Notes under the pieces: model-generated
Databases searched by the model: none
The model's input: the letters and a program-made list of their open reading frames with translations, nothing else
Told to the model about the DNA's origin: nothing
Part shown: positions 23,982 through 64,000 of the stretch, one piece after another
Layout: each line of letters starts with the position of its first letter
Numbering within the stretch: the stretch's first letter is position 1
Program-made: the position numbers and the translations under genes
Origin: Candidatus Anderseniibacteriota bacterium
GTDB lineage: Bacteria; Patescibacteriota; Andersenbacteria; UBA10190
Reading direction: 5' to 3'
DNA: 64,000 bases
Assembly (NCBI GenBank): GCA_021414205.1
Contig: JAIOOW010000003.1
Span: forward strand, 48 to 64,047

Positions 23982-26468
23982 CTATCCAATATCAAAAAGG
24001 GACTCGCTCATGTATGAATCGTGTTCCACTTTATCGCTTTGTTGATTAGGTTTTACTCCTTCAAATCGAGATGTAATCTCTTGCTCAACATCAGCGCGAG
24101 ATCTGCCATAGAGCGTCCGCGAATTCTCTTTTATCTGCCCTGCGATATCAGGATCTCCAATTGCAGGAGGAAGCGGCACAGCAATACTGCATGCGCGCTC
24201 CGGCGTACTGTTCACAAGAGGTCGAACAACGGCAGTAAATCGTCTCAAGTTTACTAAATCATATTGCGTAAACACGGGTGCAAATTGTTTTTCCATAAAC
24301 TCCGCATCCTCAACGCCAATGCGATACGAAACAATCGTACCAACGTTTCCAAATACGGCATCTGCAATCGGCTCGTCAAGCTGATTAATAAACTGATGTG
24401 CCAAATTAAGATTCAAACGATACTTTCTTGCTTCCGACAATATCGTCGCGATGCTGTCGGTTGTAAAATTTTGAAACTCATCAAGGTACAAATAAAAATC
24501 ATTACGCTCGTTTTCCGGAATATCTGCGCGACCAAGAGCAGCTATTTGAATTTTAGATACCAGTACAAATCCCAATAAATCAGAATTCATATCGCCTAAT
24601 TCCCCTTTCGATAAATTGCAGAGCAGAATTTTCTTCTGATCCATAATCTCCCTCACATCAAATGATGATGTTGCCTGCCCGATAATATTCCTCACTGTGT
24701 CGTTACTAATAAATCTACCAAGCTTACTAATGATATAGCTGAGCATATCCGCAGACATTTGTCCGCGCTGGGACTGTGCAAATTCTTGGTTCCAAAACTG
24801 CAACACAACAGGGTTTGTAACTTTGCTCAATATTTGCTTCCTGAATGGCTCATCCACAAACATGCGAGGCACGTCGAGCAATGTTGCCTGCGGATCTTCA
24901 ACAAGCGCTAATAATGCATTCCTTAAATAATGCTCGAACATCGGCCCTATCGATTCCGGATTTAACCTTGCGGCAAGCTTTTGCAAAATTTGCACTACCT
25001 CATTTACAACTAAGTCCCTCTGCTCAGAATTCTTTGATTCTAAAATATTAAACCCGAGTGGGCGGTCTTTATCTCGCGGATCAAACAGCACAACATCCTT
25101 CAATCGATTCTGAGGAATGTGGTGTAGAATATCTGAAATTAAATCGCCGTGCGGATCTACAACGCCGACGCCATTCCCTGCCTGAATATCCTGAATAATC
25201 ATGTTTAAAAACATCGTCGTTTTTCCAGTTCCAGTTTGGCCCAATAGATACATATGGCGTCTCCTATCAGACTGGCTGATATGTACAGGCGTATCGATTC
25301 CCCGATACTGATTAACACCAATTAACACGCCATCTTGAGGAAGATTACTTGGCGCAGGCGCAGACTTAGCTCCTCTCCAAACTATATTAGGAGTAGATGT
25401 GGTAGGAAGAGGAAAGTGATACATACTAGATATTTCAGCAGTGCCAAACACCGATGCGGAGGATTCATCAGGAACTCGAAATACCATCTTCTCAATAAAC
25501 TTCTTCTTGTTTTTAGGTTCCTTAAACACAAGCTGATTTAAGTCGGGAAAATCATACTGAGAAAATGCTGATGCAAGGCCATGGAATACGCGCTCCGCAT
25601 CGTCCCGCTTTCGCACAGAAACGCCCACGCGAATATTTACAGAGAACTGCTGTTGTACCATTTTCGCTTCTACCAACTCAATACGTTGTTGCATCCGAGT
25701 TGTCATCTTGCCTGCTCGCTGCTCGTCCGTATCCCTATCCGACTTTGTTTTCGTTACTGCAGATAAAATTGAGGAAAAACCAAACGAGGAGCTCGAAAGG
25801 TCCGCTTGCTTCCCGAGCATCGTACGTTTTGTGGCTTGCGATGCCTGTATAGATGACGATCTCGATGCCGGCGTAAGAATGTACTGTATTAGTGCGGAAT
25901 CAGTGCTTTGCATTTTTGCCAATGCGCCCGTAAGCGGCTGCATCGGATCAACTTCCAACTCTTTATATGTTGCAATTGGCAAATATTCTTTCCGTCGTAA
26001 TCGGAAACTGGCCACACGAACAGCATCCCCTTCCGCAAAAATGGTAAATTCTGGAGCATCCTTAACTTCCGCTTCTGGATAATGCGCATAAATCTGCTTT
26101 TCCAAATGCTGAATATACTTCCGTTCTGTTCCTGCAAAAAACAAAATTCCTTGATCTGGGATACTGGCCATCTCAAACACCACGACTGGCTTACCATATA
26201 GAAACTGCTGTTTCCAGGATGATGGCAAAGATGAGAGCGTAGATAAAAACTGCTCTCCAACCGCGATACGCTCCTTGATTGACTGCCCAATACCTTCCTC
26301 CCTATCTTCCTTCTGCATATCTTTCGGCAACAGCACTTGGAGCATTTGAATATCTAGCGATCGAGACATTCGCGCACGTTCACGAAGAAGCAGCGCTATC
26401 GCAAAAAGTCCGGCGCAACAGAGGCCCAACATAATAACTAGTAACAAAAACCCGATAAAAGAAATCAT
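23982..26468 (-). CDS. TrwB/TraD/VirD4-like type IV coupling-protein-family ATPase with an approximately 400-aa N-terminal extension.
   Basis: N-terminal TM segment. Walker A YLLGQTGTGKTTMF followed by VVDPHGDL matches the TrwB_AAD_bind pattern (GxTGxGKS...VDPnGD). Walker B is LYLDEFQNF. The 370-aa region before the NTPase domain includes Ser-rich low complexity. Confidence 0.55.
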   Translation of the reverse strand: MISFIGFLLLVIMLGLCCAGLFAIALLLRERARMSRSLDIQMLQVLLPKDMQKEDREEGIGQSIKERIAVGEQFLSTLSSLPSSWKQQFLYGKPVVVFEMASIPDQGILFFAGTERKYIQHLEKQIYAHYPEAEVKDAPEFTIFAEGDAVRVASFRLRRKEYLPIATYKELEVDPMQPLTGALAKMQSTDSALIQYILTPASRSSSIQASQATKRTMLGKQADLSSSSFGFSSILSAVTKTKSDRDTDEQRAGKMTTRMQQRIELVEAKMVQQQFSVNIRVGVSVRKRDDAERVFHGLASAFSQYDFPDLNQLVFKEPKNKKKFIEKMVFRVPDESSASVFGTAEISSMYHFPLPTTSTPNIVWRGAKSAPAPSNLPQDGVLIGVNQYRGIDTPVHISQSDRRRHMYLLGQTGTGKTTMFLNMIIQDIQAGNGVGVVDPHGDLISDILHHIPQNRLKDVVLFDPRDKDRPLGFNILESKNSEQRDLVVNEVVQILQKLAARLNPESIGPMFEHYLRNALLALVEDPQATLLDVPRMFVDEPFRKQILSKVTNPVVLQFWNQEFAQSQRGQMSADMLSYIISKLGRFISNDTVRNIIGQATSSFDVREIMDQKKILLCNLSKGELGDMNSDLLGFVLVSKIQIAALGRADIPENERNDFYLYLDEFQNFTTDSIATILSEARKYRLNLNLAHQFINQLDEPIADAVFGNVGTIVSYRIGVEDAEFMEKQFAPVFTQYDLVNLRRFTAVVRPLVNSTPERACSIAVPLPPAIGDPDIAGQIKENSRTLYGRSRADVEQEITSRFEGVKPNQQSDKVEHDSYMSESLFDIG

Positions 26469-38119: not shown

Positions 38120-38587
38120 ATGATTATCCTCGGACTGGACCCGGGCATTGCTCGGACCGGTTATGGAATTATAAACACCGATGCTCCTTTTCAATTCGTT
38201 ACATGCGGATGTATTACGACGCTCCCCATATACCCACTCGAGCAACGACTAGATATTATTGCGCAAGATGTAACGAATCTTATAGATACGTACAATCCAG
38301 ACATTGGAGTTGTCGAGGAAATATTCTTTGGAAGAAACACAACTACGGCGATGAAAACCGCTCATGTGCGCGGAGTACTCCTCCAAATTCTGCATGCACG
38401 CCATATAACAGTTCAGGAACTCACGCCGCTTCAGATCAAATCTCGACTTACAGGGTATGGGGCTGCAACAAAAACACAAATACAAAACATGATAAAACAA
38501 CAACTACGCTTAACTTCTATCCCTCAACCAGATGATGCTGCAGACGCATTGGCGGCAGCATTATGCGCTGAAAAAATAACACTATGA
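38120..38587 (+). CDS. ruvC: Crossover junction endodeoxyribonuclease RuvC.
   Basis: MIILGLDPGIARTGYGII with the catalytic Asp, EE...FFGRN, and a C-terminal DDAADALAAAL are all classic RuvC. Confidence 0.9.
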   Translation: MIILGLDPGIARTGYGIINTDAPFQFVTCGCITTLPIYPLEQRLDIIAQDVTNLIDTYNPDIGVVEEIFFGRNTTTAMKTAHVRGVLLQILHARHITVQELTPLQIKSRLTGYGAATKTQIQNMIKQQLRLTSIPQPDDAADALAAALCAEKITL

Positions 38588-40122: not shown

Positions 40123-40127
40123 GCGCT

Positions 40128-41441
40128 ATGGCGGCATTTCTAAACAAAAAATGGGGAGATATTTTGGGCATGAATTCTCGCATGTTGGATTATATTATCA
40201 AATCCAATTCACCTGAATCGATCCGTATTGCAAACAATAAATTAGCTACAAAAAAAGCTCTTCAAAAAGCAGGGTTAGCAACTCCTCGCCTGTTCGCAGT
40301 AGTCCGCAATCGAACTGAATTACGAAAATTCAGATGGACAAAACTCCCCGCTTCTTTTGTGCTAAAACCAACATCCTCCTCTGGTGGAGGTGGAATTATC
40401 GTAATGTTCGGCAGAAACAAAAAAGGTAACTGGGTAAAAGCGAATAAGACGGAAGTTTTTATTCCTGAGCTCAAGGCTCATATTCAAGATATTTTGGATG
40501 GAAACTTCTCAAAAGGAAATGTCCCAGATACCGCCTTTTTTGAACAACGAGTAAAGATTCATGCAACATTAAAGCCCTATTGCGTAAAAGGAATTCCGGA
40601 TGTCCGAGTCATTATCTACAACCAAGTCCCCGTGATGGCCATGCTCCGGTTACCCACCGAAGAATCTCACGGCCGGGCAAACCTCCATACTGGCGGAATT
40701 GGTGCGGGGATAGACATATCGACCGGACTCACAACGTCAGCTATTCGACACCACAAGCCAATAGACAAAACGCCACATAATCACTTGCGAATTTCCGGCA
40801 TCCAAATTCCGTTCTGGGACGACATTCTCTTGCTTGCTTCACGAGCGGCTCAGGCATGCGGACTTAATTATGTTGGGGTTGATATCGCAATCGACAGAGA
40901 CGACGGTCCGCTCGTTCTTGAAGTAAACGCGCGGCCGGGATTAGACATACAATTCGCTAACCTTTCTCCGCTCAAGTCTCGCCTGCGCAGAGTGGAGGGG
41001 TTAAAAATGAAAAGCATCGAAAAAAAAATACAACTGGCAAAAAACTTATTTGGCGCTGAGTTAGACCAGGAAATTGAAGATATTTACGGCCATACCGTGC
41101 TTGGAATTGAAGAAGAGGTCATTATCTTTGATCATGAAGGGCGACAATACCCCGTGCTTGCAAAAATAGATACTGGCGCATACAGAACTACTATAGATGA
41201 AAACCTGGCTATTCGTCTGGGCATCAATTCCCCTGTCATTATCCACAAAGGCGTCCGAGGAGCGCTCGGAAGGCAAACTCGGCCCGTAATCTCCCTGGAA
41301 ATGTCTCTCAGAAATAGGAATATTAAAACACATGCCTCTCTTATTGACCGTTCTCATATGAAATACGATATGATTATAGGAAGGCGTGACATGAAGGGGT
41401 TTTACGTAAATCCTTCTAAAATACGCCAAACAGTCTTATAG
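40128..41441 (+). CDS. RimK-like ATP-grasp alpha-L-glutamate-ligase-like enzyme fused to a C-terminal retropepsin-like (DTGA) peptidase domain.
   Basis: The ATP-grasp core contains FVLKPTSSSGGGGIIVM, VIIYNQ...MLR and NLHTGGIGAGIDISTG (RimK family). The C-terminal approximately 100 aa carries VLAKIDTGAYRTTID, matching the PF05618 retropepsin-like 'Zn-protease' motif (AKxDTGA). The ATG at 40128 lies 5 nt after the upstream stop. Confidence 0.65.
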   Translation: MAAFLNKKWGDILGMNSRMLDYIIKSNSPESIRIANNKLATKKALQKAGLATPRLFAVVRNRTELRKFRWTKLPASFVLKPTSSSGGGGIIVMFGRNKKGNWVKANKTEVFIPELKAHIQDILDGNFSKGNVPDTAFFEQRVKIHATLKPYCVKGIPDVRVIIYNQVPVMAMLRLPTEESHGRANLHTGGIGAGIDISTGLTTSAIRHHKPIDKTPHNHLRISGIQIPFWDDILLLASRAAQACGLNYVGVDIAIDRDDGPLVLEVNARPGLDIQFANLSPLKSRLRRVEGLKMKSIEKKIQLAKNLFGAELDQEIEDIYGHTVLGIEEEVIIFDHEGRQYPVLAKIDTGAYRTTIDENLAIRLGINSPVIIHKGVRGALGRQTRPVISLEMSLRNRNIKTHASLIDRSHMKYDMIIGRRDMKGFYVNPSKIRQTVL

Positions 41442-47673: not shown

Positions 47674-49071
47674 TCATGCATAAATCCTTTCTCGCAAGAA
47701 GCTGATCTCTTGTGATAACTCCTCATCATTATCAATAAGTTTTTCTATTTTTTCGCATGCATGCATGGCAGTTGTGTGGTCTCGTCCGCTAAAATGTTCA
47801 CCAATAGATGGAAAGGACATATTGCTTTCTCTTCGAAGGATGTACATTGCAACCTGGCGTGGTCGCACGATTTCTTTTTTTCTGGACTTTCCGCACAATT
47901 CCTCATGGGAAATATTATAGTAAGAGCTTACTGCGGAAATAATTTCCTCCGCGTTTACTGTTTTGCGTTGAGGTTTTTCAATAAGATCTTTAAGTACTCG
48001 CTTAGCATATTCCAGGGTTATTTTTTCGTGATGGAGGTCAAAGTATGCTGCTACCTTATTAAGCGCTCCTTCCAATTCTCGTACGTTGCTTTGAATGTTT
48101 TTTGCTATATAGGAGAGCGCGTCGGAATCGATGTCTATATTTCTGAGGTCTCGTTTTTCTTCTAGGATTGCAAGGCGGGTTTCGTAGTCTGGCCGCTTTA
48201 CGTCAGCTATCATGCCGGCAGATAATCTTGATGATAGGCGCTCTTGGAGTGCTGGGATAGCTGATGGTGGGCGATCGCTGCTTAAAATAATTTGCTTGTT
48301 TTGATTATGGAGTGTGTTAAATGTATAGAAGAGCTCCTCTTGAGTTTTGTCTTTGCCCGCAAAAAACTGAACGTCGTCAATAATAAACATATCCACGTCT
48401 CGGTAGCGCTTTTTAAATTGCTGTATAGTCCCCTCTCGGAGAGATTCGACGAATTCATTCGCAAATTTTTCAGATGCTACATACATAACAGTGAATCCGG
48501 GATTTGCTGCGATAACTGCATTTCCTACTGCTTGTAGGAGGTGTGTTTTTCCCAAACCAACTCCGCCGTAAATAAAAAGAGGGTTATATGTTTCACCTGG
48601 ATGCTCGGCAACCGCTCTGCACGCTGCGTGCGCAATTTCGTTACTTGTACCAACTACGAATGTGTCGAATGTGTACTTTTTATTGAGAGGTATTGAGGAT
48701 GGTGATGGTTGCTTGGTTGGGTATTTTGCGATGTGATCGGATGATGACGGAGTATTTTCGTTTTTTGCGGTATTTTTTTGAGCCACAATGCGAATATTTT
48801 TCTTGGAAATGCGCCGATCGGTATTCTTGGATGCAATAGAGAATTTGATGTCAGATATAGAGTTGTCTATCCCCTGGATTACTTCAAGGATGAGTGGTTT
48901 GTATTTTTTAGATAACCATTCGTATGCAAAAGGGTTTTGAGTTTCGATAATCGCCACGTCGTTTGTACGCTCTTTGATATTTGTGTTTCGAAACCATGTA
49001 AGGAAGTTCCCCTTACTCACGCGGAGCTCCAGTTGATCAAGTGCTACCTTCCAAAGTTGAGTGTCTTTCAT
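47674..49071 (-). CDS. dnaA: Chromosomal replication initiator protein DnaA.
   Basis: AAA+ Walker A GGVGLGKTHLLQA, box VII and sensor motifs, and a C-terminal DNA-binding domain (...MYILRRESNMSFPSIGEHFSGRDHTTAMHACEKI). The start is at Met8 (MKDTQLWKVALDQL), which aligns to DnaA N-termini. The ORF is open to 49092. Confidence 0.93.
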   Translation of the reverse strand: MKDTQLWKVALDQLELRVSKGNFLTWFRNTNIKERTNDVAIIETQNPFAYEWLSKKYKPLILEVIQGIDNSISDIKFSIASKNTDRRISKKNIRIVAQKNTAKNENTPSSSDHIAKYPTKQPSPSSIPLNKKYTFDTFVVGTSNEIAHAACRAVAEHPGETYNPLFIYGGVGLGKTHLLQAVGNAVIAANPGFTVMYVASEKFANEFVESLREGTIQQFKKRYRDVDMFIIDDVQFFAGKDKTQEELFYTFNTLHNQNKQIILSSDRPPSAIPALQERLSSRLSAGMIADVKRPDYETRLAILEEKRDLRNIDIDSDALSYIAKNIQSNVRELEGALNKVAAYFDLHHEKITLEYAKRVLKDLIEKPQRKTVNAEEIISAVSSYYNISHEELCGKSRKKEIVRPRQVAMYILRRESNMSFPSIGEHFSGRDHTTAMHACEKIEKLIDNDEELSQEISFLRERIYA

Positions 49072-49217
49072 ATGCAAGCAGAATCGTATCATGGTTATCC
49101 ACAGCTGTGTACAGTCCGTAAGGTTGAAAATGTGGAAAAGGTGTTGATAATGTGTGTAAAAAATAGTTGATGGTCCTGACTATTGACTTTATAGCGCCTA
49201 TAAAGCATCATTGGGAA
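49072..49217. promoter_or_regulatory. dnaA upstream region / origin of replication candidate (DnaA boxes, divergent promoters of dnaA and rpmH).
   Basis: Perfect TTATCCACA at 49095-49103 and TGTGGAAAA (one mismatch) at 49131-49139. The region is AT-rich. Gene orientation and G/T skew switch here. Confidence 0.5.
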
Positions 49218-54337: not shown

Positions 54338-55104
54338 CAATAGGAGCTGTAATTGTTACATATAATAGTAAGAATACTGTGCGTGCCTGCATTGATAGCG
54401 TGCTCTCTGAGGGGGTATCTGACATTGTCATTGTTGATAGCAATTCAACGGATGGTACTCAATTGGTTATATCGAATCTGGAGGGCCGGGTTGTTGAGCT
54501 TTCCGAGAATAGAGGATTTGGGTTTGCCGCAAATACTGGTGCATATTTATTGAACACTGATTGTGTTCTATTTATAAATCCGGACGCTTATCTAAAACCG
54601 GGAGCCCTATCTTCGATGATGCAAGTAATGCATAGCCGTAAAAAAATCGGCGCTGTTGGTGGAATGCTTGTAGATACGCAGGGCGCCCCAGAGCCATATT
54701 CATTTGGAGAAACCGTAACCCCATTTGGGATCCTTGCGAGGGCGCGGAGGAGGCAAAAGAGTGTTTCTGAGCCGGTTTCAGTGGGGTGGGTTTCGGGTGG
54801 CGCCATTCTGGTAAATCGCAGGGTATTTCAGGGTATTGGCGGATTCGATGATAGTTTTTTTCTGTATTGGGAGGATGTTGATCTATGCAGGAGGATTAAA
54901 GAGTGTGGATTTGACGTCTATATTGACCCAAATGCGACTGTTGTTCATGTTCGCGGAGCGAGCAGTACAGATATTCGAGAAAAAACAGAACTATACGACG
55001 CGTCTGCAACCAGGTACTTTCAAAAGTACTACCCCCCTTTTATATGGAGCACTTATCTTATCGCACGAAAAATATACCGACTCGTGCGCCCATTGGCATA
55101 TTAA
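54334..55104 (+). CDS. Glycosyltransferase family 2.
   Basis: GAVIVTYNSKNTVRACIDSVL, IVIVDSNSTDGT, a DxD and a C-terminal FFLYWEDVDLC are typical of GT2 (rhamnosyltransferase-like). ATGA overlap with the upstream gene. Confidence 0.75.
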   Translation: MTIGAVIVTYNSKNTVRACIDSVLSEGVSDIVIVDSNSTDGTQLVISNLEGRVVELSENRGFGFAANTGAYLLNTDCVLFINPDAYLKPGALSSMMQVMHSRKKIGAVGGMLVDTQGAPEPYSFGETVTPFGILARARRRQKSVSEPVSVGWVSGGAILVNRRVFQGIGGFDDSFFLYWEDVDLCRRIKECGFDVYIDPNATVVHVRGASSTDIREKTELYDASATRYFQKYYPPFIWSTYLIARKIYRLVRPLAY

Positions 55105-56276
55105 TTAGTATTTGTGGAGCGGTTATCGTGGGGCAGATAGGGCGCATCCCCTTAAATAACCAGGGTGGCGGCCTCCTCATAAGTGACATTGTTCTTGTCG
55201 CGAGCCTGGCATGCGGGGTAATTACGATGTTGCTTGGCATAATTCCGCTGCAGGGAGCTCTTAAGGCACCAAGGGTATATGTATATACATCATTGCCATT
55301 TTTTCTATGGGTGTTTGCTGTGCTTGTGTATCGCGAGTACATGCTCGGTGTGCACTCATTTTTGATTGCCTTGTTGTATGCACTTAGGCTGCTTGCGATA
55401 TCCCTCTTATTCCCCCTGCTCACCTGTCTCGTGAGCGCAAGAGTAGCTCAAAAGGCGTTTTTATGGATGTATTACATGCTTATTGCTCTTGGGTATGCCC
55501 AGCTCGTCGTATTCCCATCTCTCGTTGGCAACATAAATGGGTGGGATCCTCATATTCATCGTATGGTGGCAACGTGGTTTGATCCGAATTTTTTTGGAGC
55601 GTTTATTGCAATGGGTATCTTGCCAGCATTGTATTGGTCTCGAGGAAATATAGCCGTGCTCGTCGCATCAATGAGCGCATTGGCCCTCACAGGCTCTCGA
55701 AGCTCTTGGATTGCCGTTATGATAGCTTGTATCGTGGTTTTGTTCGTGTATCTGCTGCGCGGATCGCTCGCACCGCATTGGAAGAAGGGCGTGTGCATTG
55801 CATTATTGGCTGGTGGAATAGTATGTATTGCTGTTGCCGGTATATTTTCCGATCGCATCTCTCATTTTTTCGTGCATGACCCTACCGTAGCATTGCGGTC
55901 AGCCGCATATACGGAAACATGGCATCGCCTGGTTGAACCGAATATGCTTTTTGGGGTCGGATACAATGCGTATCAATTTAGTGCAAAGTCCGCAGGCCTG
56001 ATACGAGATTTTTCCATCCACTCAAGGGCCGGATCCGATAATAGCGGGATAACGCTCCTCGTGACTACGGGAATAATCGGCACTATGCTCTTTTTTCTGC
56101 CGTTTATTGTTGGGGTATATTGGCATGGAAAGCAGTGGTTGTTGCACAAAAGGGGCCAATCGTTACTTTTTCTCTGGTCGCTGGTTGTTATTATTGTGCA
56201 TGCACAGTTTGAAAATAGCTTACTATATCCACACCTGTTGATGGCGTTTATTATTATTGCCGTGGCTACGCTATGA
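55044..56276 (+). CDS. O-antigen ligase/polymerase-family (Wzy/WaaL-like) polytopic membrane protein.
   Basis: At least 10 TM helices and a LTGSRSSWIA motif in a periplasmic-loop-like segment, typical of the O-antigen ligase domain. Confidence 0.58.
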   Translation: MEHLSYRTKNIPTRAPIGILISICGAVIVGQIGRIPLNNQGGGLLISDIVLVASLACGVITMLLGIIPLQGALKAPRVYVYTSLPFFLWVFAVLVYREYMLGVHSFLIALLYALRLLAISLLFPLLTCLVSARVAQKAFLWMYYMLIALGYAQLVVFPSLVGNINGWDPHIHRMVATWFDPNFFGAFIAMGILPALYWSRGNIAVLVASMSALALTGSRSSWIAVMIACIVVLFVYLLRGSLAPHWKKGVCIALLAGGIVCIAVAGIFSDRISHFFVHDPTVALRSAAYTETWHRLVEPNMLFGVGYNAYQFSAKSAGLIRDFSIHSRAGSDNSGITLLVTTGIIGTMLFFLPFIVGVYWHGKQWLLHKRGQSLLFLWSLVVIIVHAQFENSLLYPHLLMAFIIIAVATL

Positions 56277-57454
56277 GCTATAATTCCTTGCTGCTGGTAC
56301 TAGCGGGAATTCTCCCCTTGTATATTGTCCGCTTCTCGATTTTTGGCGTTCCAACAAACGCATTTGAGGTTTCTGTATTATTAGCTCTTTGTATTGGAGT
56401 CTTTTCTATTAACATCAGAAGGAGCTGGGTGTACGCGCTAAAAACGATGCCTCGAGGGATGCAAATTGCCATCGCACTCTTGTTTTTGTCGGCGTGTATC
56501 TCAGCTGCAATTTCTCATGAAATGCGAGTGAGCTTTGGGATTTTAAAGGGCTGGTTTATTGTGCCGATGGTCTTTGGGTTTTTAGTTATGAGCGCAATAA
56601 AATATAACTCCGCCATGAAACCGCGAATACTAGATTCGCTGATGGTATCTGGGGTAGTCGTGTCCGTAATTGGTATGTTGCAAATCGGCTCGATGCCAAG
56701 GATTGCGTCTGTGTATGACGTGCCAAACTCACTGGCATTATTTATAGTTCCTCTAGTAATTATTGCTTTATATAGAGGCGTATTACTCAGAAATCGGGCA
56801 TATCTTGTGTCTGCTGCTATTATAGCTATTGCCATTCTTGCGACGCAATCCGTTGGGGCGATATTTGCGCTTATAGGAACTGGTAGTATCGGCTGGTTTG
56901 CGGGTATTTTGCCAGCGGTTTTCAATTCGAAAGCGCAAAGGTTGAGAGTACGTTTTTTGAGCTGGGTGATAATGGCTGTTATTTTTATCGCTTTTGTATT
57001 GTCGGGTCGGATTCAGTATCTCATCCCCCCGCTTCTTCATCCTGGGGCAACAAATTCCGCAACGGTGCGACTGCAATTATGGGATGTTGGTATTCGCCTT
57101 ATACAAAAGCACTCGATTCTTGGTGTTGGGCTTGGGCAGTTCGAGCCAGCATATCAGGCACAACTTCATCAGCTTTTTACTCAACATGTCCCAGGGTTGC
57201 AGGCAGAATACGTTTTTCGAGATCCGCACAATTGGATTATATCGTTTTGGTTGAACCTCGGTATCTTGGGTTTGGTAAGTTTCGCATATATAAATTACAA
57301 AGCCATTCGTATTTCAATAAAGTCTAAAAACCTAGAAAATAGAGCAATCGCTCTTGCTGGTATTTCTACACTGTTATTTGGGTTAGTTGATACGATCTAC
57401 TGGAAAAACGATCTATCGGTGCTGTGGTGGATGGTAATGGTATTAGCGTTCTGA
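56273..57454 (+). CDS. Second O-antigen ligase/polymerase-family polytopic membrane protein.
   Basis: A multi-TM paralog of the preceding gene (overall architecture plus a QSVGAIFALIGTG segment). ATGA overlap with the upstream gene. Confidence 0.55.
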   Translation: MSYNSLLLVLAGILPLYIVRFSIFGVPTNAFEVSVLLALCIGVFSINIRRSWVYALKTMPRGMQIAIALLFLSACISAAISHEMRVSFGILKGWFIVPMVFGFLVMSAIKYNSAMKPRILDSLMVSGVVVSVIGMLQIGSMPRIASVYDVPNSLALFIVPLVIIALYRGVLLRNRAYLVSAAIIAIAILATQSVGAIFALIGTGSIGWFAGILPAVFNSKAQRLRVRFLSWVIMAVIFIAFVLSGRIQYLIPPLLHPGATNSATVRLQLWDVGIRLIQKHSILGVGLGQFEPAYQAQLHQLFTQHVPGLQAEYVFRDPHNWIISFWLNLGILGLVSFAYINYKAIRISIKSKNLENRAIALAGISTLLFGLVDTIYWKNDLSVLWWMVMVLAF

Positions 57455-57467
57455 TTTGAGGAGATGG

Positions 57468-57821
57468 CTAAGGGTTTTTTTCAAGCGCGCGAACTCGATC
57501 AATTAAATCTTGTAACCTTGCCTCGTCTTTATTTATTTGGTCTTGTAGCTCAGCGGATGCAGTTCCTCCTGGAGGTATCTGGCTTTCTAATGTCGAAATA
57601 TCGTTTGTAATAGCTTGTTCTTGGGATTGGAGGTCCGCAATTTCAGCAGCAGTATCTGTTCCCGAACCCCCAGAACTAGTTGAGGATGTTCCTCCCCCCG
57701 GTGCTCCGCTTCCTACAGGCCCCAAGCTTGGCTCCACTGCATTTTTCCCCAAGAAAGGATTGATGGTGTTAAGCAATACTACGGATATGAATGCAATGAA
57801 TATGCCCAGCAATGCAGACAT
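57468..57821 (-). CDS. Small TM protein with Gly/Ser-rich linker and coiled-coil tail (C-terminal half of a disrupted/recombined paralog).
   Basis: The N-terminal TM MSALLGIFIAFISVVLLNTINPFLGK...GAPGGG is encoded by the 141-bp exact repeat. It is followed by an SSGGSG linker and a coiled coil (EIADLQSQEQAITNDISTLESQI...). Confidence 0.4.
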   Translation of the reverse strand: MSALLGIFIAFISVVLLNTINPFLGKNAVEPSLGPVGSGAPGGGTSSTSSGGSGTDTAAEIADLQSQEQAITNDISTLESQIPPGGTASAELQDQINKDEARLQDLIDRVRALEKNP

Positions 57822-57830
57822 GATCCATTC
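57690..57830. repeat. 141-bp perfect direct repeat, copy B (identical to 58052..58192).
   Basis: Base-by-base identical to 58052..58192 on comparison by eye (cctccccccggtgctccgcttcctacagg...gcagacatgatccattc). It encodes the TM/Gly-rich segment of two paralogous small proteins. Confidence 0.9.
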
Positions 57831-58027
57831 TTTGTATCAAGAAAAGCCCCTACTGGCTGATTCGCGGTAAAGGTTTTTGATCCTGGTAATCCGACTTCGA
57901 AACATCCTAATGCGGATGCTGATGATGGGCAGGGCGCAGATGTTTGTGCGTGCGCGGAATATCCAAAAAGTACCGACAAAAAGAGGCTGGAGGTAGTAAT
58001 AAATTTTTTTATGGTGCTATGGTTCAT
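57779..58027 (-). CDS. Small secreted Cys-containing protein (N-terminal half of a disrupted paralog, possible pseudogene fragment).
   Basis: Signal peptide plus the segment APCPSSASALGCFEVGLPGSKTF, homologous to AQACPSGSTYGCLEVGLPGNSDF in the 58049..58579 gene. Its 3' end reads into the shared repeat out of frame. Confidence 0.3.
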   Translation of the reverse strand: MNHSTIKKFITTSSLFLSVLFGYSAHAQTSAPCPSSASALGCFEVGLPGSKTFTANQPVGAFLDTKNGSCLHCWAYSLHSYP

Positions 58028-58048
58028 GACGCAAGTAAGTATACCGCA

Positions 58049-58579
58049 CTATCCTCCCCCCGGTGCTCCGCTTCCTACAGGCCCCAAGCTTGGCTCCACT
58101 GCATTTTTCCCCAAGAAAGGATTGATGGTGTTAAGCAATACTACGGATATGAATGCAATGAATATGCCCAGCAATGCAGACATGATCCATTCGGTGATAA
58201 CGCCAATGATGACGAGGATTGCGAGGGCGAATTTCACAACGAGGTTAACTAAATCTCTGATAGGGGTGCCGGCATATGCAATTGCGTCAACTTTTGATCC
58301 AGCACTAAAATCGCTATTGCCCGGCAATCCAACCTCAAGACAGCCGTATGTTGATCCGGATGGGCACGCTTGCGCACTAGTAGAGCTAGAACCTGTGTCT
58401 ATAACATCTCCGCCGGGCGCAGGCTTGCCGTTTCCTATTTGCGCCTGAGCGTACATATGTTGATTTCCGAGCAAGAAAAATGTGCTCATTATCACGAATG
58501 CTATTTTCTGTGGTAGCGGCATTAATATTAGTATATCACGCACTACTTTACGTTTTGTAAAGAACCGATGCTTTGGCAC
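58049..58579 (-). CDS. Secreted/TM-anchored small Cys-containing surface protein (intact paralog).
   Basis: Signal peptide (IAFVIMSTFFLLGNQHMYAQA), a Cys-containing domain (CPSGSTYGCLEVGLPG), a hydrophobic helix, then the repeat-encoded TM/Gly-rich segment ending ...GAPGGG. Confidence 0.45.
   Translation of the reverse strand: MPKHRFFTKRKVVRDILILMPLPQKIAFVIMSTFFLLGNQHMYAQAQIGNGKPAPGGDVIDTGSSSTSAQACPSGSTYGCLEVGLPGNSDFSAGSKVDAIAYAGTPIRDLVNLVVKFALAILVIIGVITEWIMSALLGIFIAFISVVLLNTINPFLGKNAVEPSLGPVGSGAPGGG
58052..58192. repeat. 141-bp perfect direct repeat, copy A.
   Basis: Identical to 57690..57830 at an offset of 362 bp. Confidence 0.9.
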
Positions 58580-59046
58580 ATACCCAGCGTTGCTTTATCA
58601 ACTGTCCATCCGGTCCATGTGTCGCAATACCCTTTGAATAGTAAGAAGAATACGATAGTTATCAGAACTGTTCCTAGAAGAATTGCGATTAATGAAGTGA
58701 TAATAATTCCACTGATACCTTTTTTCCCTCCAATGTATCTTCCTAACAGCGCTCCCGCAGCTGTTCCTAGGAATGGAATAACAGATCCAATCCACCCTCC
58801 TGCAAATTCGCCCGCTACCTGTCCCGCCTTCTTATCTGCCATTTTTACGGCTCTATTGCTGGCCATGGATTTTAATAGCGATAGATTTTGCTTGTGAGCA
58901 TATTCTCTATTTGCGGTATCTTGATCCTCTTCGTCGATATTCGTGTTTACTAATTGGGGCTTATAGGATCTTTTTTGTATTTGAGCCTCTATGCGATTGC
59001 GATTTGCGTTTAATTCTGCAAGGCGAGCATGTTCATTGCTTGCCAT
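58543..59046 (-). CDS. Coiled-coil plus C-terminal multi-TM small protein (hypothetical, T4SS-associated).
   Basis: An N-terminal charged coiled coil followed by Gly-rich hydrophobic helices (GGWIGSVIPFLGTAAGALLGRYIGG..IIITSLIAILLGTVLITIVFFLLF). Located directly downstream of the VirB4-like gene. Confidence 0.4.
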   Translation of the reverse strand: MASNEHARLAELNANRNRIEAQIQKRSYKPQLVNTNIDEEDQDTANREYAHKQNLSLLKSMASNRAVKMADKKAGQVAGEFAGGWIGSVIPFLGTAAGALLGRYIGGKKGISGIIITSLIAILLGTVLITIVFFLLFKGYCDTWTGWTVDKATLGMCQSIGSLQNVK

Positions 59047-59049
59047 ATA

Positions 59050-60876
59050 TTACGCATTAGCGCTCAACTCTTTCTTTGCAGCCTCAATGGCAAGGATTTG
59101 TTGCGGATCGGATGTAATAATCTGGTCTTCTGCATAGCTTGCCACAACTTTGATTGCCACGTGCTTGAGCCCCGCAAAGAAAATACCCTCTCCTACGTCG
59201 CTTTCCAGTAACCTGAACTTTTCGTGGTCCGTTAAGTAGAATACTTCAGATAGAGTATCGATTGCTGCCGGAGATTGTCGCAACAAGAGCTGAATAGATG
59301 AATTCGTCACAATCGGCTTGCCGTACTTTGATGCCAAGAAGTCGGAAATGTCTTGCGTAATCGTTGTTACTCCCAAATAGTACTTGCGGGCGCGTTTTGC
59401 CATAGAGAATAAGAATTTCGCAGATTCTTCGTTGCGCATCATGATCCAGGCTTCGTCTACGACGAGGATTCGTCGCTTTAATTGGCTTCGAACACGGTTC
59501 CAAATGAATCCGAGTACTACATACATGGCAATCGGCCGCAATTCTTCTTCCATGTCTCGGATATTAAATACGATGCACGCTTGATCAAGGTCGATATTGG
59601 TTGCTCGGTTAAATACTCCTGCAAATGTACCTTCTACGAAGCGCTGTAAGCGCACCGCAACGTTCTTTCCACCTTCCATTTCTTTCGTAATGTTGTAAAA
59701 ATCTTGCAGAGTTGGTACTTCTGGATTTTTCCAACGCGCACCGCGTGTAATATCTTTTAATGCATACGTTTCCCAAAGACCAGAGTCAACGATGGATTGC
59801 TCCTCTGCAGAAAGTCCATCGACCATCAAGGAAATTAGACCGATTAAGCGCGTAATATTTTCTCGTAAGGCAGATTCCGGATTTTCGTCTTCAGCTAATT
59901 CCGGTAAATCGAACGGATTGATGCGATGATCGGATGCGATAGCGATTTGCAGATACGCTCCCCCTACGGCTTCCGCGAGGTATCTGTATTCTTGCTCAGG
60001 GTCGATGACGATAACTTCGGTACCAAACATCATACTTCTTAATATTTCCAGTTTTACGGTATAGCTTTTCCCGGCACCGGATTTTGCGAAGATGACCATA
60101 TTGGCATTTTCTAGGCTAAACCTGTCGAACAATACCAAGCTGCTGTTATGCAGGTTGATTCCGTACAGCACTCCCGTATTGCTTGTAAGGTCCGAGCTTA
60201 CGAACGGGAAGCTGGTAGAGAGCGGCGACGTGTTCATGTTCGTATTTACGGCCAAGTTATCGTGTCCGAGCGGTAATGTAGAGGTAAACGCCTGCTCCAT
60301 TTGGAATAGCGCCGGCTTTGCGTAGATAAGGCGCCCTTCGAGCAATACCTCAACTTGAGAGAGGATGTCATCCAATTCTTCCTCCGTATTTGCATACACC
60401 GTAATATAGAGGCCGTACTGATAAAAGCGCTCTGTCCCCTGCACTAAGCGGTCTCGGAGCTCTTCAATGTCTTGGTATGCTGTTTCGAGCTGCGGATCGC
60501 GTACCTTTCCTTGCTCCTGCTGCATCGTAATAGATGTAGATACTTGAGTAATGCGCTTTCTAAGCTCTTTTAAGATGGTTGCAGAGTCTTGCGGATAAAT
60601 AAACATTGCAACGTCGAATTCCACGTCAAAATTTACGATAGAGGCAAACCAATTCGTATCTAGGTATCGCGGATAGGTTGTTACGTAGATTGTTGTGGCA
60701 AATTTGCCGTCTATTTCCAACGACTTTGTCTTCACTTTGAATCCTGATGGGGCTATCAGGTCGCGAAGCGATGATACTCCTTTCTCGAATTGATCCATAA
60801 CGGCCTTATCTTCTTTGCTGATCGGGGCAGTTGGTGTACCCGTCTTTTTTTGTGGGAATAGAGAGGGGAATTTCAT
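59050..60876 (-). CDS. VirB4/TrbE/CagE-family type IV secretion ATPase.
   Basis: An N-terminal VirB4-type domain (KSLEIDGKFATTIYVTTYPRYLDTNWFASIV), Walker A IFAKSGAGKSYTVK and Walker B ILVVDEAWIMM (the DEAW motif typical of VirB4/TraC). Confidence 0.75.
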   Translation of the reverse strand: MKFPSLFPQKKTGTPTAPISKEDKAVMDQFEKGVSSLRDLIAPSGFKVKTKSLEIDGKFATTIYVTTYPRYLDTNWFASIVNFDVEFDVAMFIYPQDSATILKELRKRITQVSTSITMQQEQGKVRDPQLETAYQDIEELRDRLVQGTERFYQYGLYITVYANTEEELDDILSQVEVLLEGRLIYAKPALFQMEQAFTSTLPLGHDNLAVNTNMNTSPLSTSFPFVSSDLTSNTGVLYGINLHNSSLVLFDRFSLENANMVIFAKSGAGKSYTVKLEILRSMMFGTEVIVIDPEQEYRYLAEAVGGAYLQIAIASDHRINPFDLPELAEDENPESALRENITRLIGLISLMVDGLSAEEQSIVDSGLWETYALKDITRGARWKNPEVPTLQDFYNITKEMEGGKNVAVRLQRFVEGTFAGVFNRATNIDLDQACIVFNIRDMEEELRPIAMYVVLGFIWNRVRSQLKRRILVVDEAWIMMRNEESAKFLFSMAKRARKYYLGVTTITQDISDFLASKYGKPIVTNSSIQLLLRQSPAAIDTLSEVFYLTDHEKFRLLESDVGEGIFFAGLKHVAIKVVASYAEDQIITSDPQQILAIEAAKKELSANA

Positions 60877-61574
60877 AGAGCGGGTTCCGTTTCTTCTACT
60901 TTTAAATCAGTCACATTGCGCAATTTCTGATTTCGCGATGTTGTTGGGTTGAAGTAGTTGTAAAATAACTCAATTAATTCCTGCGTTTTAAGCGGCACCA
61001 CGCGCAAGCCAATTCCTCGAAGGCCGATTGCGATCTGCTCTACTCGGTGGAGAATCTGTGTCTTATTGTGCTCAAACTCAACGTCGTTCATTTTGAGATT
61101 CCCAGTTGCGCCCTTGGCCCCTTTCGTAATTCTGCCGAATGTCCCCTCTTTCTTGCTCTGGGATACGGAGAATGGAATGGTTACAAAGAACGTTTTGGTC
61201 ATGATATTACTTCCTTTTACGAGTTCTCCGATGAAGTTGATATATTCGGTCATCTGTAAATGCAGTAACTCGTTTTTTTGCAGATCCCTAAGGCGTTTTA
61301 CTTCTTCTAAATAGGCCGTAATATCCATTTTTCGAGAAGAAACGGTGAGCTGGATGGAGAAGTCCAATGAATTAATAAATTCCTGATATGCGTAGATGAT
61401 AGCGTTCTGTTCTTCCTCTGATTTTAATGCGAAATTTACGGAAGAGATCATGAGCACGCTTCGCATTGTTCCGTCGTTCAAAATTAAAATTCCATCTCGA
61501 ATCTCCGAAATTTTAATGAGCGATTGGCTTGCACGCCCTTTGCTCGAAGGATTAAGCATGTCGAAGATTGCCAT
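60873..61574 (-). CDS. Hypothetical T4SS-associated protein.
   Basis: A 233-aa soluble protein whose stop overlaps the VirB4-like start (ATGA). No recognisable motif. Confidence 0.4.
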   Translation of the reverse strand: MAIFDMLNPSSKGRASQSLIKISEIRDGILILNDGTMRSVLMISSVNFALKSEEEQNAIIYAYQEFINSLDFSIQLTVSSRKMDITAYLEEVKRLRDLQKNELLHLQMTEYINFIGELVKGSNIMTKTFFVTIPFSVSQSKKEGTFGRITKGAKGATGNLKMNDVEFEHNKTQILHRVEQIAIGLRGIGLRVVPLKTQELIELFYNYFNPTTSRNQKLRNVTDLKVEETEPAL

Positions 61575-61598
61575 ACGGGTGCATTATACCACAGCCTG

Positions 61599-62042
61599 CT
61601 ATTTGGGTTCTTCGGCTAATGGATCTTCAATATCTTCCGTGCTGACATTTCCTTTTGTATCGAGCGATTGCGCAATTGCATCGAGCGATGAAGATTCCCG
61701 CTCAGCCTTCGCAGTTGTGCGCACGGCGTCCCATTCATCGTCTACAATCTTGAACGGTTCAACCTTTTGTCTGCGCCATACGTATAGCTGGCCTTTTGAT
61801 ATATATGAAAATCCTGCAAGTATGACGGCGCCGAATGATTTGCCGTATATTTTTACATGAGCAAACACTGCTGCAATGCCTAGGACGGGCAGTGCAATCG
61901 TGATAAATAGCGATAAGTCGGAGTAAATATATACTGGCACAAGTAACATGCACGCAACGATGTACATGATGAATTGCTTGAGCGTAAATGGACCGATAAT
62001 CTTGTCCTCGATGTCCGTAAATTGTGGTACTTGAAATCGCAT
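61599..62042 (-). CDS. Small two-TM membrane protein (VirB3/PrgI/TcpE-like candidate).
   Basis: 147 aa with two adjacent TM helices (FIMYIVACMLLVPVYIY / FITIALPVLGIAAVFAHV) and an acidic C-terminus. The size and topology match the small proteins found upstream of VirB4 in Gram-positive T4SS. Confidence 0.4.
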   Translation of the reverse strand: MRFQVPQFTDIEDKIIGPFTLKQFIMYIVACMLLVPVYIYSDLSLFITIALPVLGIAAVFAHVKIYGKSFGAVILAGFSYISKGQLYVWRRQKVEPFKIVDDEWDAVRTTAKAERESSSLDAIAQSLDTKGNVSTEDIEDPLAEEPK

Positions 62043-62045
62043 GGG

Positions 62046-62768
62046 CTATGGTCTACGTGTTGGAGGTAATGGAAACTGTGGCTTCGGCGGAATTGAAGGA
62101 GGTGTAGGCGCCACCCTCGGTAAAGCCGAGGGGCGAGATGGTGTCGTTGGTCGTTGAGATAAATCCACAGTCCTATTCCCCGGCATTAGTTTTTTTTGCA
62201 CTGGCCTTGCCGGCAAATCTTTTTGTTCGGGCCGTGCGTTTAATTCTTTTAAGTCGAGTACATTCTTTGCTCCGCGAAGTCTGGATGGTGTAGTTGGGAT
62301 GGTGTTCACATTAGGTGTTCGATTATTATTTTCAACGTTTTGATTTGGTAATGAATCCAGCTTTTTCTGCGCGGGAGCAGTTGATGGTCCGGATGACTGT
62401 TGTGCCCAAAACGCATCGAGCTCCCCCTGTATCGGGGCAAATAAATCCTGATCGATTTCGGAGGCAAGATTTAGTGCAATATCCATACCTACGCCGGTTT
62501 TTTGGGCAATGAGCGTACTTAAGTCGCTAATATTCTTGTTTCCGATAAATACTTCAAGAATCGAAAGCGCGATTTTGGGCGCATCGTCTGGTGTTATTTT
62601 AGACCCTTTTGTTAACCCCCTGATATATGCTCCAGTATCATCAGAGAAAGCCACGTCTCTAATTTTCTCGGGTGCAGCAATGATTTTACTTAAGTACCCG
62701 GAGCGCCGATCTTCTGGCAGTAATATTACTGAGTTTGCTGGTATTGTTGAGAATAATAATGTGTCCAT
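62046..62768 (-). CDS. Hypothetical protein with a Pro-rich C-terminal tail.
   Basis: 240 aa. The C-terminal third is PxxP-rich (PARPVQKK...PTPPSIPPKPQFPLPPTRRP), suggesting a cell-wall spanning or linker region. Confidence 0.4.
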   Translation of the reverse strand: MDTLLFSTIPANSVILLPEDRRSGYLSKIIAAPEKIRDVAFSDDTGAYIRGLTKGSKITPDDAPKIALSILEVFIGNKNISDLSTLIAQKTGVGMDIALNLASEIDQDLFAPIQGELDAFWAQQSSGPSTAPAQKKLDSLPNQNVENNNRTPNVNTIPTTPSRLRGAKNVLDLKELNARPEQKDLPARPVQKKLMPGNRTVDLSQRPTTPSRPSALPRVAPTPPSIPPKPQFPLPPTRRP

Positions 62769-62777
62769 AGAGAAAAG

Positions 62778-63986
62778 TTATTTTTTGAGATCAGCAACTG
62801 TTTTGGCGATTTTTTCCATAGTCATAGTCTTTTCTTTATCGTTTATGTCCTTAGAGTCAAGTATTGCTGTTTGAAGCTTGGCCATATCTTTTGGTTTTAG
62901 ACTAGCAACGTAGTCTTTATTGCCAGCAATTGCATTACGACGTGATTGGCCACCCTTATTCATAATGAATTCAACGTTTGTATCACCAAGTGCTTTTAAT
63001 ACATGGCCCTTTGAAAGCTCGCTCGGGAGAAGCTCCGCCTTTGTTGTGATGTCGTCGGGCTTCGTAAGCGTGCCTAATGCCTTAATGTCAGCTACTTCCT
63101 TATTCACTTTTGTATTCAGTCCACTTGTTAAGCTATTTCCGAAGCTTGACCCTAGGGTCGACTTACCTTTTAGAAGCTTACCTTCCTTGTCACGCAGATC
63201 GTATCCTAAGCCCTCTCTAATCTTTTTAATCGCGCTATTGCCCTTGAGGTTGTCTTTAGCTGAACCAAGAAAGTCTCCAGCCTGCTGACGCGCTCCCGTA
63301 TACCCCATCTGAGCTAGTCCAGCCCCACCTGCCGCTAGAACACCAGCTCCGACTCCCCCGGTCATTACGCCAACGCCAAGCCCGATTGCCTTCTTCGGGT
63401 TCTTGCGTGCCCATGCGCCTGTTTTATTTGCGAAGCCCATCGCAACATCCGATCCGACTCCTGCCACTCTTTTGCCCGCATAATTTGCGATGAAGAATAG
63501 CGCGATCACTACGATGAAATGCAGCATGGCATTGAATGAAGTTTGCCAAGAAGTGTCGGTAGTTACGTCGCTGGGCAATTCCGGCGAAATATTTTGCACC
63601 TGAATAATAATTAAGAGGAAAAAGAACACGATTGGGCCATATAAAACCCATTTGATAAACATTCCCCACCATGCAGACGCGTATCCAGACGTTTTCGGAA
63701 GGGCAAAGGCAAGGTATGCGAGAGGAGAAACCATGAGGAGCATAATAAGGGCGATATATCGAACGAATAGGTTGATGGCGATGATGCCCATGCCAGCCGT
63801 TAATGCAATCGTAAAGAAACTTTGCTGAATGAGGCGCGACATAATAGCAATAAAATTACTGTTTGTGCCCGGGTCTTGTAACCCGGCCACTTTTTCGTTA
63901 ACAATTTCACTTCTTTCAATTAACTTTGCCGTGAAATTTTTCGCCGTTACTTGCCCTCCACCCATCAAATTTATTTCAACGGCCAT
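62778..63986 (-). CDS. Polytopic membrane protein, VirB6/TrbL-like candidate. The N-terminus may extend beyond the window.
   Basis: At least five TM helices in the N-terminal half with Gly-rich loops (GVGVMTGGVGAGVLAAGGAGLAQMGY) and a hydrophilic C-terminal half. It sits at the head of the VirB4 operon. The reading frame stays open upstream of the Met at 63986 to the window end. Confidence 0.42.
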   Translation of the reverse strand: MAVEINLMGGGQVTAKNFTAKLIERSEIVNEKVAGLQDPGTNSNFIAIMSRLIQQSFFTIALTAGMGIIAINLFVRYIALIMLLMVSPLAYLAFALPKTSGYASAWWGMFIKWVLYGPIVFFFLLIIIQVQNISPELPSDVTTDTSWQTSFNAMLHFIVVIALFFIANYAGKRVAGVGSDVAMGFANKTGAWARKNPKKAIGLGVGVMTGGVGAGVLAAGGAGLAQMGYTGARQQAGDFLGSAKDNLKGNSAIKKIREGLGYDLRDKEGKLLKGKSTLGSSFGNSLTSGLNTKVNKEVADIKALGTLTKPDDITTKAELLPSELSKGHVLKALGDTNVEFIMNKGGQSRRNAIAGNKDYVASLKPKDMAKLQTAILDSKDINDKEKTMTMEKIAKTVADLKK

Positions 63987-64000
63987 AGCTACTCGCGACA

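Follow-up and report, generated by a model that had tools for sequence, protein, structure and literature searches.

Probable distal part of a chromosomal type IV secretion system of the Patescibacteria VirB4 clade in Candidatus Andersenbacteria

Introduction

Type IV secretion systems (T4SSs) of the Patescibacteria are thought to be central to host exploitation by ultrasmall epibionts. According to the survey by Quinonero-Coronel et al. 2025 (PMC12102498), the VirB4 ATPases of the Patescibacteria form a clade nested within the MPF_FATA class, and the partner seen most often is TrsD. The clusters also encode PrgI/VirB3, VirB6 and VirB2-like pilins (PF18895), the last of these frequently as arrays; hardly any relaxases occur, homologues of the type IV coupling protein (T4CP) lie far from virB4, and the clusters are found near dnaA, dnaN, rnpA, ksgA and rpmH. 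Here we analyze a gene cluster at one end of a 64,000-nucleotide stretch of DNA (hereafter the window) from a Candidatus Anderseniibacteriota bacterium (contig JAIOOW010000003.1 of assembly GCA_021414205.1). Very probably, this cluster represents the distal part of the chromosomal T4SS of Candidatus Andersenbacteria, belonging to the Patescibacteria VirB4 clade that derives from monoderm MPF_FATA systems.

What these systems do has been addressed in Southlakia. Transposon sequencing by Wang et al. 2023 (PMC10633639) found the T4SS cluster and the pilins to be essential for the epibiotic growth of this organism, and protein export or another non-DNA function was proposed. The essentiality is also summarised in a 2025 review (PMC12857230), and the Southlakia counterpart of the T4CP was not essential, whereas the T4SS genes were (PMC12102498). 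A 2026 preprint describes tube-like structures where parasite and host meet, possibly T4SS pili. For our window, the original prediction, made by a model from the letters of the sequence, proposed a Gram-positive-type T4SS-like cluster of a bacterium of the candidate phyla radiation that does not serve conjugation. This proposal held up: the VirB4 protein scored best with the CD1110 family, and the cluster lies in conserved synteny with housekeeping genes near dnaA.

Results

The cluster contains a 608-aa VirB4 ATPase (59050..60876, minus strand, as are all T4SS-like genes described below) that lacks about the first 175 positions of the family profile. It reached 382.6 bits with the NCBIfam model of the CD1110-family VirB4 (cutoff 325), covering positions 177-733 of 752, and scored lower with F-type TraC (179 bits), VirB4_CagE (151) and TrbE (28). 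Pfam P-loop_TraG was matched with E 7.7e-25 and CagE_TrbE_VirB above the gathering score, and the PDB sequences matched included VirB4 (4AG5, E 1e-44) and TrwK (7O41, E 2e-10). The Walker A motif (AKSGAGKS) is at residue 264 and the Walker B motif (ILVVDEAW) at residue 470, in agreement with the earlier call of a VirB4-family ATPase with Walker A and DEAW. By these profile and structure-sequence matches, the protein is predicted to be a VirB4 ATPase of the MPF_FATA type.

The gene directly upstream (60873..61574) encodes a 233-aa protein that the original prediction had left as an unknown. It belongs to the TrsD/TraD family and is homologous to the N-terminal domain of VirB4, here free-standing: it matched the CD1110 VirB4 profile at positions 2-145 (E 1.1e-8), the N-terminus of VirB4_plasma, which is the VirB4 of mycoplasma integrated conjugative elements (ICEs), with E 9e-8, and TrsD/TraD with E 4.7e-5. 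All 27 of the diverse family members that were scanned matched both TrsD/TraD and the VirB4_plasma N-terminus, and relatives of the protein carry a precomputed match to Pfam TraC-like (PF26593). When the family profile was searched against the PDB sequences nothing significant was found, and an AlphaFold2 (AF2) model built without an alignment had a predicted local distance difference test score (pLDDT) of 34. Because the 233-aa and 608-aa proteins cover these separate parts of the CD1110 profile, and because the TrsD/TraD match was found throughout the family, VirB4 is in effect encoded in two pieces, a split that the monoderm systems of the pGO1/pIP501 subclass share. The TrsD-like gene adjoins virB4 in every locus that reaches far enough upstream of virB4.

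Two membrane components are predicted near virB4. The PrgI/VirB3-like protein (61599..62042) has two transmembrane (TM) segments and matched Pfam PrgI with 31.2 bits (E 3.2e-7, gathering score 27); it also matched the 116-aa VirB3/TraL-like protein of a T4SS cluster in Pontibacillus (BLASTP E 1e-4). The VirB6-like polytopic protein lies at the window edge (62778..64000), so that its C-terminal 406 codons, with at least five TM segments, are in the window. The cluster had been thought to begin at 63986; since the reading frame stays open through the last window base, 64000, this position is not the gene start, and in contig L087, an independent assembly (Logan contig, SRR15633504) that is 100% identical to the window from 64000 to 58202, the full-length protein has 635 aa (L087 8084-9991). 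The windowed fragment by itself matched Pfam TrbL weakly (E 0.008), and seven of the 30 family members matched TrbL, the best with E 6.8e-10. A profile of the family aligned to the 779-aa protein that takes the corresponding place in the Pontibacillus cluster (hhalign 92%, E 6e-7), including the region of the R...SP.A...P...WW motif that is invariant in the VirB6-like family; against the PDB sequences the family profile gave no meaningful match. Profile searches thus recovered CagE_TrbE_VirB and PrgI above the gathering score and TrbL at the family level, and the labels given earlier, a two-TM VirB3/PrgI-like protein and a polytopic VirB6/TrbL-like protein, can be kept, the VirB6 assignment being a prediction at the level of the family only.

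At the distal end of the operon the window as assembled contains three open reading frames (ORFs) over the pilin genes (58049-58579, 176 aa; 57779-58027, 82 aa; 57468-57821, 117 aa), and the window pilin copies in this form have no Pfam match. The nearest strains, L004, L005 and L007, whose VirB4 is 99% identical, carry two intact tandem pilin genes at the same place. Pilin paralogue A in the window (58049..58522) has its ATG at 58522, matching the start called in the intact L004 orthologue (12355-12882), and compared with the latter it is without 66 nt (22 aa, in frame) that encode the last part of TM1 and the loop from there to TM2. Paralogue B (57468..58027), which has intact orthologues in all three strains, is without 139 nt relative to L004, and the resulting frameshift yields the 82-aa and 117-aa ORFs. 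A repeat search found a perfect 141-nt direct repeat (copy 1, 58052..58192; copy 2, 57690..57830) that corresponds to the shared pilin core, namely TM2 and the following segment, and both the 66-nt and the 139-nt gaps end exactly at its start. There are three pilin ORFs instead of two because both copies lack sequence beside this repeat. The largest default k-mer of MEGAHIT is 141, and L087 stops at window base 58202, 10 nt before repeat copy 1. Since the gaps abut the repeat, the orthologues are intact, L087 breaks off here and the repeat has the length of that k-mer, we read the broken pilins as an assembly artefact; the defects are most likely an error of repeat collapse and not biology.

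Intact pilin A is 175 aa as called (193-194 aa if started at an upstream GTG) and intact pilin B 228-233 aa. The L004 pilin A reached 35.1 bits with the Pfam T4SS_pilin family PF18895 (gathering score 26.6), matched TrbC/VirB2 with E 2e-4 and gave a weak match to the NCBIfam Mbov_0395 pilin-like family; intact pilin B of L004, L005 and L007 also passes PF18895, with 29.6 bits, and it too matches TrbC/VirB2. Judged from these intact orthologues, the locus is predicted to encode VirB2-like PF18895 pilins in tandem. Of the three small membrane proteins that had been listed downstream of virB4, one is retained, the Gly-rich membrane protein at 58543-59046, and the rest resolves into the two pilin genes. 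The paralogues share a core that is 249 nt long and 100% identical in L007 (5146-5394 and 5647-5895), and 283 nt long and 95% identical in L004 and L005 (L004 12597-12879 and 13101-13383). This core spans TM1, the loop and TM2; the N-terminal exposed regions and the C-terminal tails differ, and in pilin B a Ser/Thr-rich linker is present and the C-terminal tail is a coiled coil. The pattern suggests that the cores are kept identical by gene conversion.

Convergent with the pilin genes are the genes of two Wzy_C-family polytopic proteins (window 55044-57454, plus strand), after which come genes for GT2 glycosyltransferases and for a flippase of the Wzx type. Wzy_C genes abut the pilins in all 22 close, Andersenbacteria-like loci, compared with nine of 42 more distant ones, and the Ser/Thr-rich tail of pilin B might be O-glycosylated by the adjacent Wzy_C-family proteins.

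The T4SS-like ORFs run uninterrupted from 64000 to 57468 with gaps of 3-24 nt, and the sole ATGA overlap (60873-60876) joins the stop of the TrsD-like gene to the start of virB4; all the ORFs called earlier, described as co-oriented with short gaps or ATGA overlaps, were found again at their positions on the minus strand. In L087 the operon extends about 5 kb beyond the window edge, up to ksgA, and three co-oriented and tightly spaced genes for 552-aa, 261-aa and 317-aa proteins (L087 4658-8082) lie 5' of the VirB6-like gene, preceded by ksgA and uvrD. The 261-aa and 317-aa proteins have hydrophobic N-termini, and the latter, at the operon head (L087 4658-5611), contains TSP3 repeats. The nearest cell-wall hydrolase gene in L087 encodes an M23/LysM peptidase and lies on the other strand some 7 kb upstream, in divergent orientation. 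A scan for promoters and terminators returned counts at or below the shuffle expectation and gave no usable signal, and an Rfam scan of the window from 47 to 64 kb found no RNA family. Far from the cluster, a second TSP3-repeat protein of 372 aa (window 1233-2351, minus strand) matched the 317-aa protein with phmmer E 1.4e-17, a likeness that is probably due to the calcium-binding repeats.

The Pro-rich protein (62046..62768) occupies the slot between VirB6 and PrgI. It has no Pfam or NCBIfam match, and neither a TM segment nor a signal peptide was predicted, and it is apparently cytoplasmic. In an AF2 model based on a 16-sequence alignment, residues 1-125 are predicted with pLDDT above 90 as an all-helical domain of eight helices, followed by a disordered Pro/Arg-rich tail (pLDDT below 50) with short motifs of the NVLDLK type; a Foldseek search of the helical domain against the PDB found no fold match, the best E being 0.6. 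A profile search with the N-terminal domain gave 16 matches, among them the 100% identical source protein, which is from an NCBI metagenome-assembled genome of Candidatus Andersenbacteria, and the family was recovered in 33 loci. An ORF fills the VirB6-PrgI slot in 56 of 56 loci, and the Pro-rich family aligned to the same-slot proteins of Moranbacteria/Paceibacteria (hhalign 90.8%, E 1.2e-6), whereas the slot is empty in the Pontibacillus cluster. From the spread of the family, the conservation of the slot and the absence in Pontibacillus, we regard the Pro-rich protein as a conserved accessory protein of the Patescibacteria T4SS clade. In the sections of PMC12102498 and PMC10633639 that were consulted, no Pro-rich family between VirB6 and PrgI is named.

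The 167-aa small membrane protein (58543..59046), just downstream of virB4, consists of a charged N-terminal region, a Gly-rich stretch resembling a Gly zipper, one strong TM segment (119-137) and a Cys-containing C-terminus, and has no Pfam or NCBIfam match. Its family has only 24 representative clusters among 1.84 billion proteins and is tiny, fast-evolving and lineage-restricted. In most related loci the slot after virB4 likewise holds a small protein for which a TM segment is predicted; against the same-slot proteins of distant lineages the 167-aa protein gave just a 20-column match over the TM segment, so that homology is demonstrated among close relatives only. Three genes had been put forward as candidate new core components: of these only 62046-62768 is a conserved nameless family, 60873-61574 is the known TrsD/VirB4 N-domain protein, and 58543-59046 is restricted in lineage.

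We compared 80 loci from species-representative genomes with 56-99% VirB4 identity, 56 of which cover VirB6 to VirB4. The order VirB6-like protein, one ORF, PrgI, TrsD and VirB4 is kept in all 56, down to 57% VirB4 identity, and these include loci named Moranbacteria, Moraniibacteriota and Paceibacterota; the co-occurrence of the neighbours in relatives, on which the T4SS reading had been staked, is thus borne out. The 80 loci are mostly titled Andersenbacteria, Moranbacteria/Moraniibacteriota, Paceibacterota, Parcubacteria or Patescibacteria group, and automated third party annotation (TPA) assemblies among them bear titles such as 'uncultured Candidatus Saccharibacteria' and, in about a dozen cases, 'uncultured Bdellovibrionales'. 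In strains with 80-99% identical VirB4, including contigs of 575 and 698 kb, the same block was found throughout: ksgA, three secreted/membrane proteins, VirB6, the Pro-rich protein, PrgI, TrsD, VirB4, a small membrane protein, the pilin(s), polysaccharide genes, yidC, rnpA, rpmH and dnaA. The best 120 VirB4 homologues are 74-99% identical, and all those with a taxon-level name are from Andersenbacteria or Patescibacteria; the best plasmid relatives, from Firmicutes and Actinobacteria, have 29-37% identity.

In the window, the cluster is followed downstream by the two Wzy_C genes, glycosyltransferases, the flippase, jag, yidC, yidD, rnpA and rpmH, and then dnaA (47674-49092). The GC skew changes sign at about 48-49 kb, and because of this and the position of dnaA we put the distance from the operon end to the likely oriC at 8.4 kb. 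No relaxase, integrase or recombinase domain was detected in window ORFs of at least 150 aa or in the 10 kb upstream, which agrees with the earlier statement on relaxases. There is no tRNA gene in the 64-kb window, the only long repeat found in it is the one inside the pilin genes, and the GC content of the cluster is uniform with the rest; the flanks, for which an integrase, a tRNA or direct repeats had been considered, carry housekeeping genes on both sides. The cluster therefore has no associated relaxase and lies near oriC, dnaA, ksgA and rnpA. As judged from these comparisons, it is chromosomally fixed, vertically inherited and non-mobile. The operon is transcribed towards the likely oriC, that is, head-on to replication; a dosage benefit of the position near the origin has been proposed in print, where orientation is not mentioned.

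Two further ATPases had been predicted elsewhere in the window, a coupling-protein-like one and PilB, and both are there. The former is an 828-aa VirD4/TrwB-like T4CP homologue (23982..26468, minus strand) that matched Pfam TrwB_AAD_bind with 32 bits (threshold 20.5) and fell slightly short with TraG-D_C (21.5 bits, threshold 22). A single TM segment lies at its N-terminus, its Walker A motif (GQTGTGKT) is at residue 410, and its residues 1-390 have no family match. The gene is about 33 kb from the cluster, between polA and a DUF3048 gene, and because of these flanks we describe it as a T4CP homologue in a housekeeping context; it is possibly a partner of the T4SS. Upstream it is overlapped by a 160-aa ORF, which has a TM segment at the C-terminal end and matches no family (within 23982-26947, minus strand), and the pair lies directly downstream of polA. 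The second ATPase (31374-33056) is of the T2SSE/PilB type, and near it is encoded a 569-aa protein with three lamin-tail domains (34134-35843, minus strand).

Besides the lamin-tail protein, the window has further surface or envelope modules at 38584-41441 (plus strand), where a PKD and 7TM_transglut protein is followed by a sugar-transfer-associated ATP-grasp protein. A 638-aa ORF without a Pfam match (14927-16843, plus strand) lies among genes for the biosynthesis of nucleotide sugars and NeuB-type, sialic-acid-like sugars.

Discussion

The components described above suggest how the system may work. VirB4 would be built from two polypeptides, the TrsD-like N-domain protein and the 608-aa motor, and would dock at the membrane via PrgI/VirB3 and the VirB6-like polytopic protein. 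There it would power the steps by which the VirB2-like pilins, whose genes close the operon, are extracted and polymerised, and the resulting pilus or conduit might reach the surface of the host cell and serve host interaction or macromolecule transfer, not conjugation. The formation of a pilus here, and the direction and nature of its cargo, we infer by analogy with described systems. The Pro-rich protein might serve the split VirB4 as a cytoplasmic adaptor, or might itself be a secreted substrate.

The locus adds an Andersenbacteria example, with a very highly conserved VirB4 found across many metagenomes, to the T4SSs of this group. It leaves the current picture of the system unchanged, with the Pro-rich protein as a conserved uncharacterised soluble partner. 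The leads that are left are small ones, namely the family of the Pro-rich protein, the fact that the pilin cores are identical, and a possible tie to the adjacent Wzy_C genes. As a tentative conjecture, which we think has the smaller chance of being right as a whole, the Pro-rich protein may be a Patescibacteria-specific T4SS component and, jointly, the tandem pilins may keep an identical core via gene conversion.

Several points weigh against a T4SS of the Patescibacteria clade that acts on a host. The VirB6-like protein itself is below the family cutoffs of Pfam and NCBIfam, and with the same two databases no VirB8-like or VirB1-like component was recognised in the operon. Both pilin genes are defective as assembled, and if this were real the strain would be unable to build a normal pilus. 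A T4CP-like gene is present in the genome, which makes DNA transfer conceivable. In addition, the role in host interaction is carried over to Andersenbacteria, by inference, from the literature on the family and on Southlakia.

Three alternatives were considered. The one that survives best is a T4SS for DNA uptake, like ComB of H. pylori or archaeal Ced, which would import host DNA or nucleotides. It would account for a pilus-like component in the absence of a relaxase, nucleotide synthesis is missing in such organisms according to the literature, and in the class ABY1 a T4SS has been reported beside comF, recG and radA (PMC12102498). However, the NCBIfam CedB match of our VirB4 is weak, with 47 bits against a cutoff of 700, CedD reached 16.7 bits against 600, and since no Ced or ComB partner protein was detected either, the cluster does not group with CedB/ComB4-type systems. 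No com genes adjoin it. In Southlakia, deletion of comEC abolishes competence with viability unaffected, competence being assigned to type IV pili and ComEC, whereas the T4SS stays essential (PMC12857230). DNA uptake is thus an unlikely function.

Still less likely is an ICE acquired recently from a Gram-positive donor, with the cluster as its transfer module or as a decaying remnant. VirB4 does score best with a Firmicutes ICE family, CD1110, the TrsD/PrgI/VirB6 order is that of the Pontibacillus cluster, and a T4CP-like ATPase is encoded elsewhere in the window. Against this stand the lack of a relaxase, integrase, tRNA or flanking repeat in the window or the 10 kb upstream, the ksgA/uvrD and yidC-rnpA-dnaA flanks, which are identical across strains at 57-99% VirB4 identity, and the uniform GC content; VirB4 identity is also 74-99% across many Andersenbacteria, and with plasmid copies it does not exceed 37%. 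A conjugative ICE or plasmid T4SS would have a linked relaxase and T4CP, an integrase/att/tRNA module, and a VirB1-type hydrolase and a VirB8-like protein in the operon, none of which we found; the T4CP-like gene is the distant one next to polA. Finally, the 608-aa ATPase might be a translocase of the HerA/FtsK type that has nothing to do with secretion, amid unrelated membrane proteins. A HerA/FtsK-like assignment was named beforehand as one of the findings that would speak against the T4SS reading. This idea can be put aside, because the matches to Pfam DUF87 (the central domain of HerA, E 2.6e-7) and NCBIfam HerA (E 0.0026) are far exceeded by those to VirB4 models, with CD1110 above its cutoff, and to 4AG5, and because the PrgI, TrsD, VirB6-like and pilin neighbours are each recognised independently and are strictly syntenic.

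We therefore return to a chromosomal T4SS of the Patescibacteria clade and compare it with known systems. The Agrobacterium VirB/VirD4 and R388 Trw systems (MPF_T) share with it the VirB4 core, as seen in the TrwK match, and VirB2-, VirB3- and VirB6-like roles, but VirB5, VirB7, VirB8, VirB9, VirB10 and VirB11 were not detected here, VirB4 is split and the envelope is monoderm. In conjugative systems of the monoderm MPF_FATA class, virB4 normally has genes for a relaxase, a T4CP and a large hydrolase of the VirB1 type beside it, whereas our cluster has none of these there, and the VirB4 identity to their plasmid systems is just 29-37%. Homology to the TrsC-TrsD-TrsE type (pGO1/pSK41/pIP501) and to the Pontibacillus cluster is nevertheless detectable protein by protein. 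In Pontibacillus sp. ALD_SL1 (NZ_CP062975.1 351801-361354) the order is the same, with a pilin-like gene and then proteins of VirB6 size, VirB3-like and TrsD-like, VirB4 and an M23 hydrolase. This cluster, which is on an 898-kb Firmicute replicon typed as non-mobilizable and lies beside flagellar genes, also encodes a two-helix pilin-like protein of the NCBIfam Mbov_0395 family, so that VirB2-like pilins are not unique to Patescibacteria among monoderm T4SSs.

The closest likeness is to the Patescibacteria-clade T4SSs, including Southlakia epibionticum SEML1_0006-0019, as described in the two papers. The same set is found in both: an MPF_FATA-like VirB4 with adjacent TrsD, PrgI/VirB3 and VirB6, tandem PF18895 pilins, no relaxase, a T4CP homologue far off, and a position near dnaA, ksgA, rnpA and rpmH. 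They differ in that Southlakia has a peptidase/lysozyme gene directly downstream of virB4, where our cluster has none, and in that paralogues of published Patescibacteria pilin arrays are at most 54% identical, whereas an identical core of about 250 nt is found in the nearest strains here. The cluster is probably a typical member of the Patescibacteria clade, in the class Andersenbacteria, of a system already described in 2023-2025.

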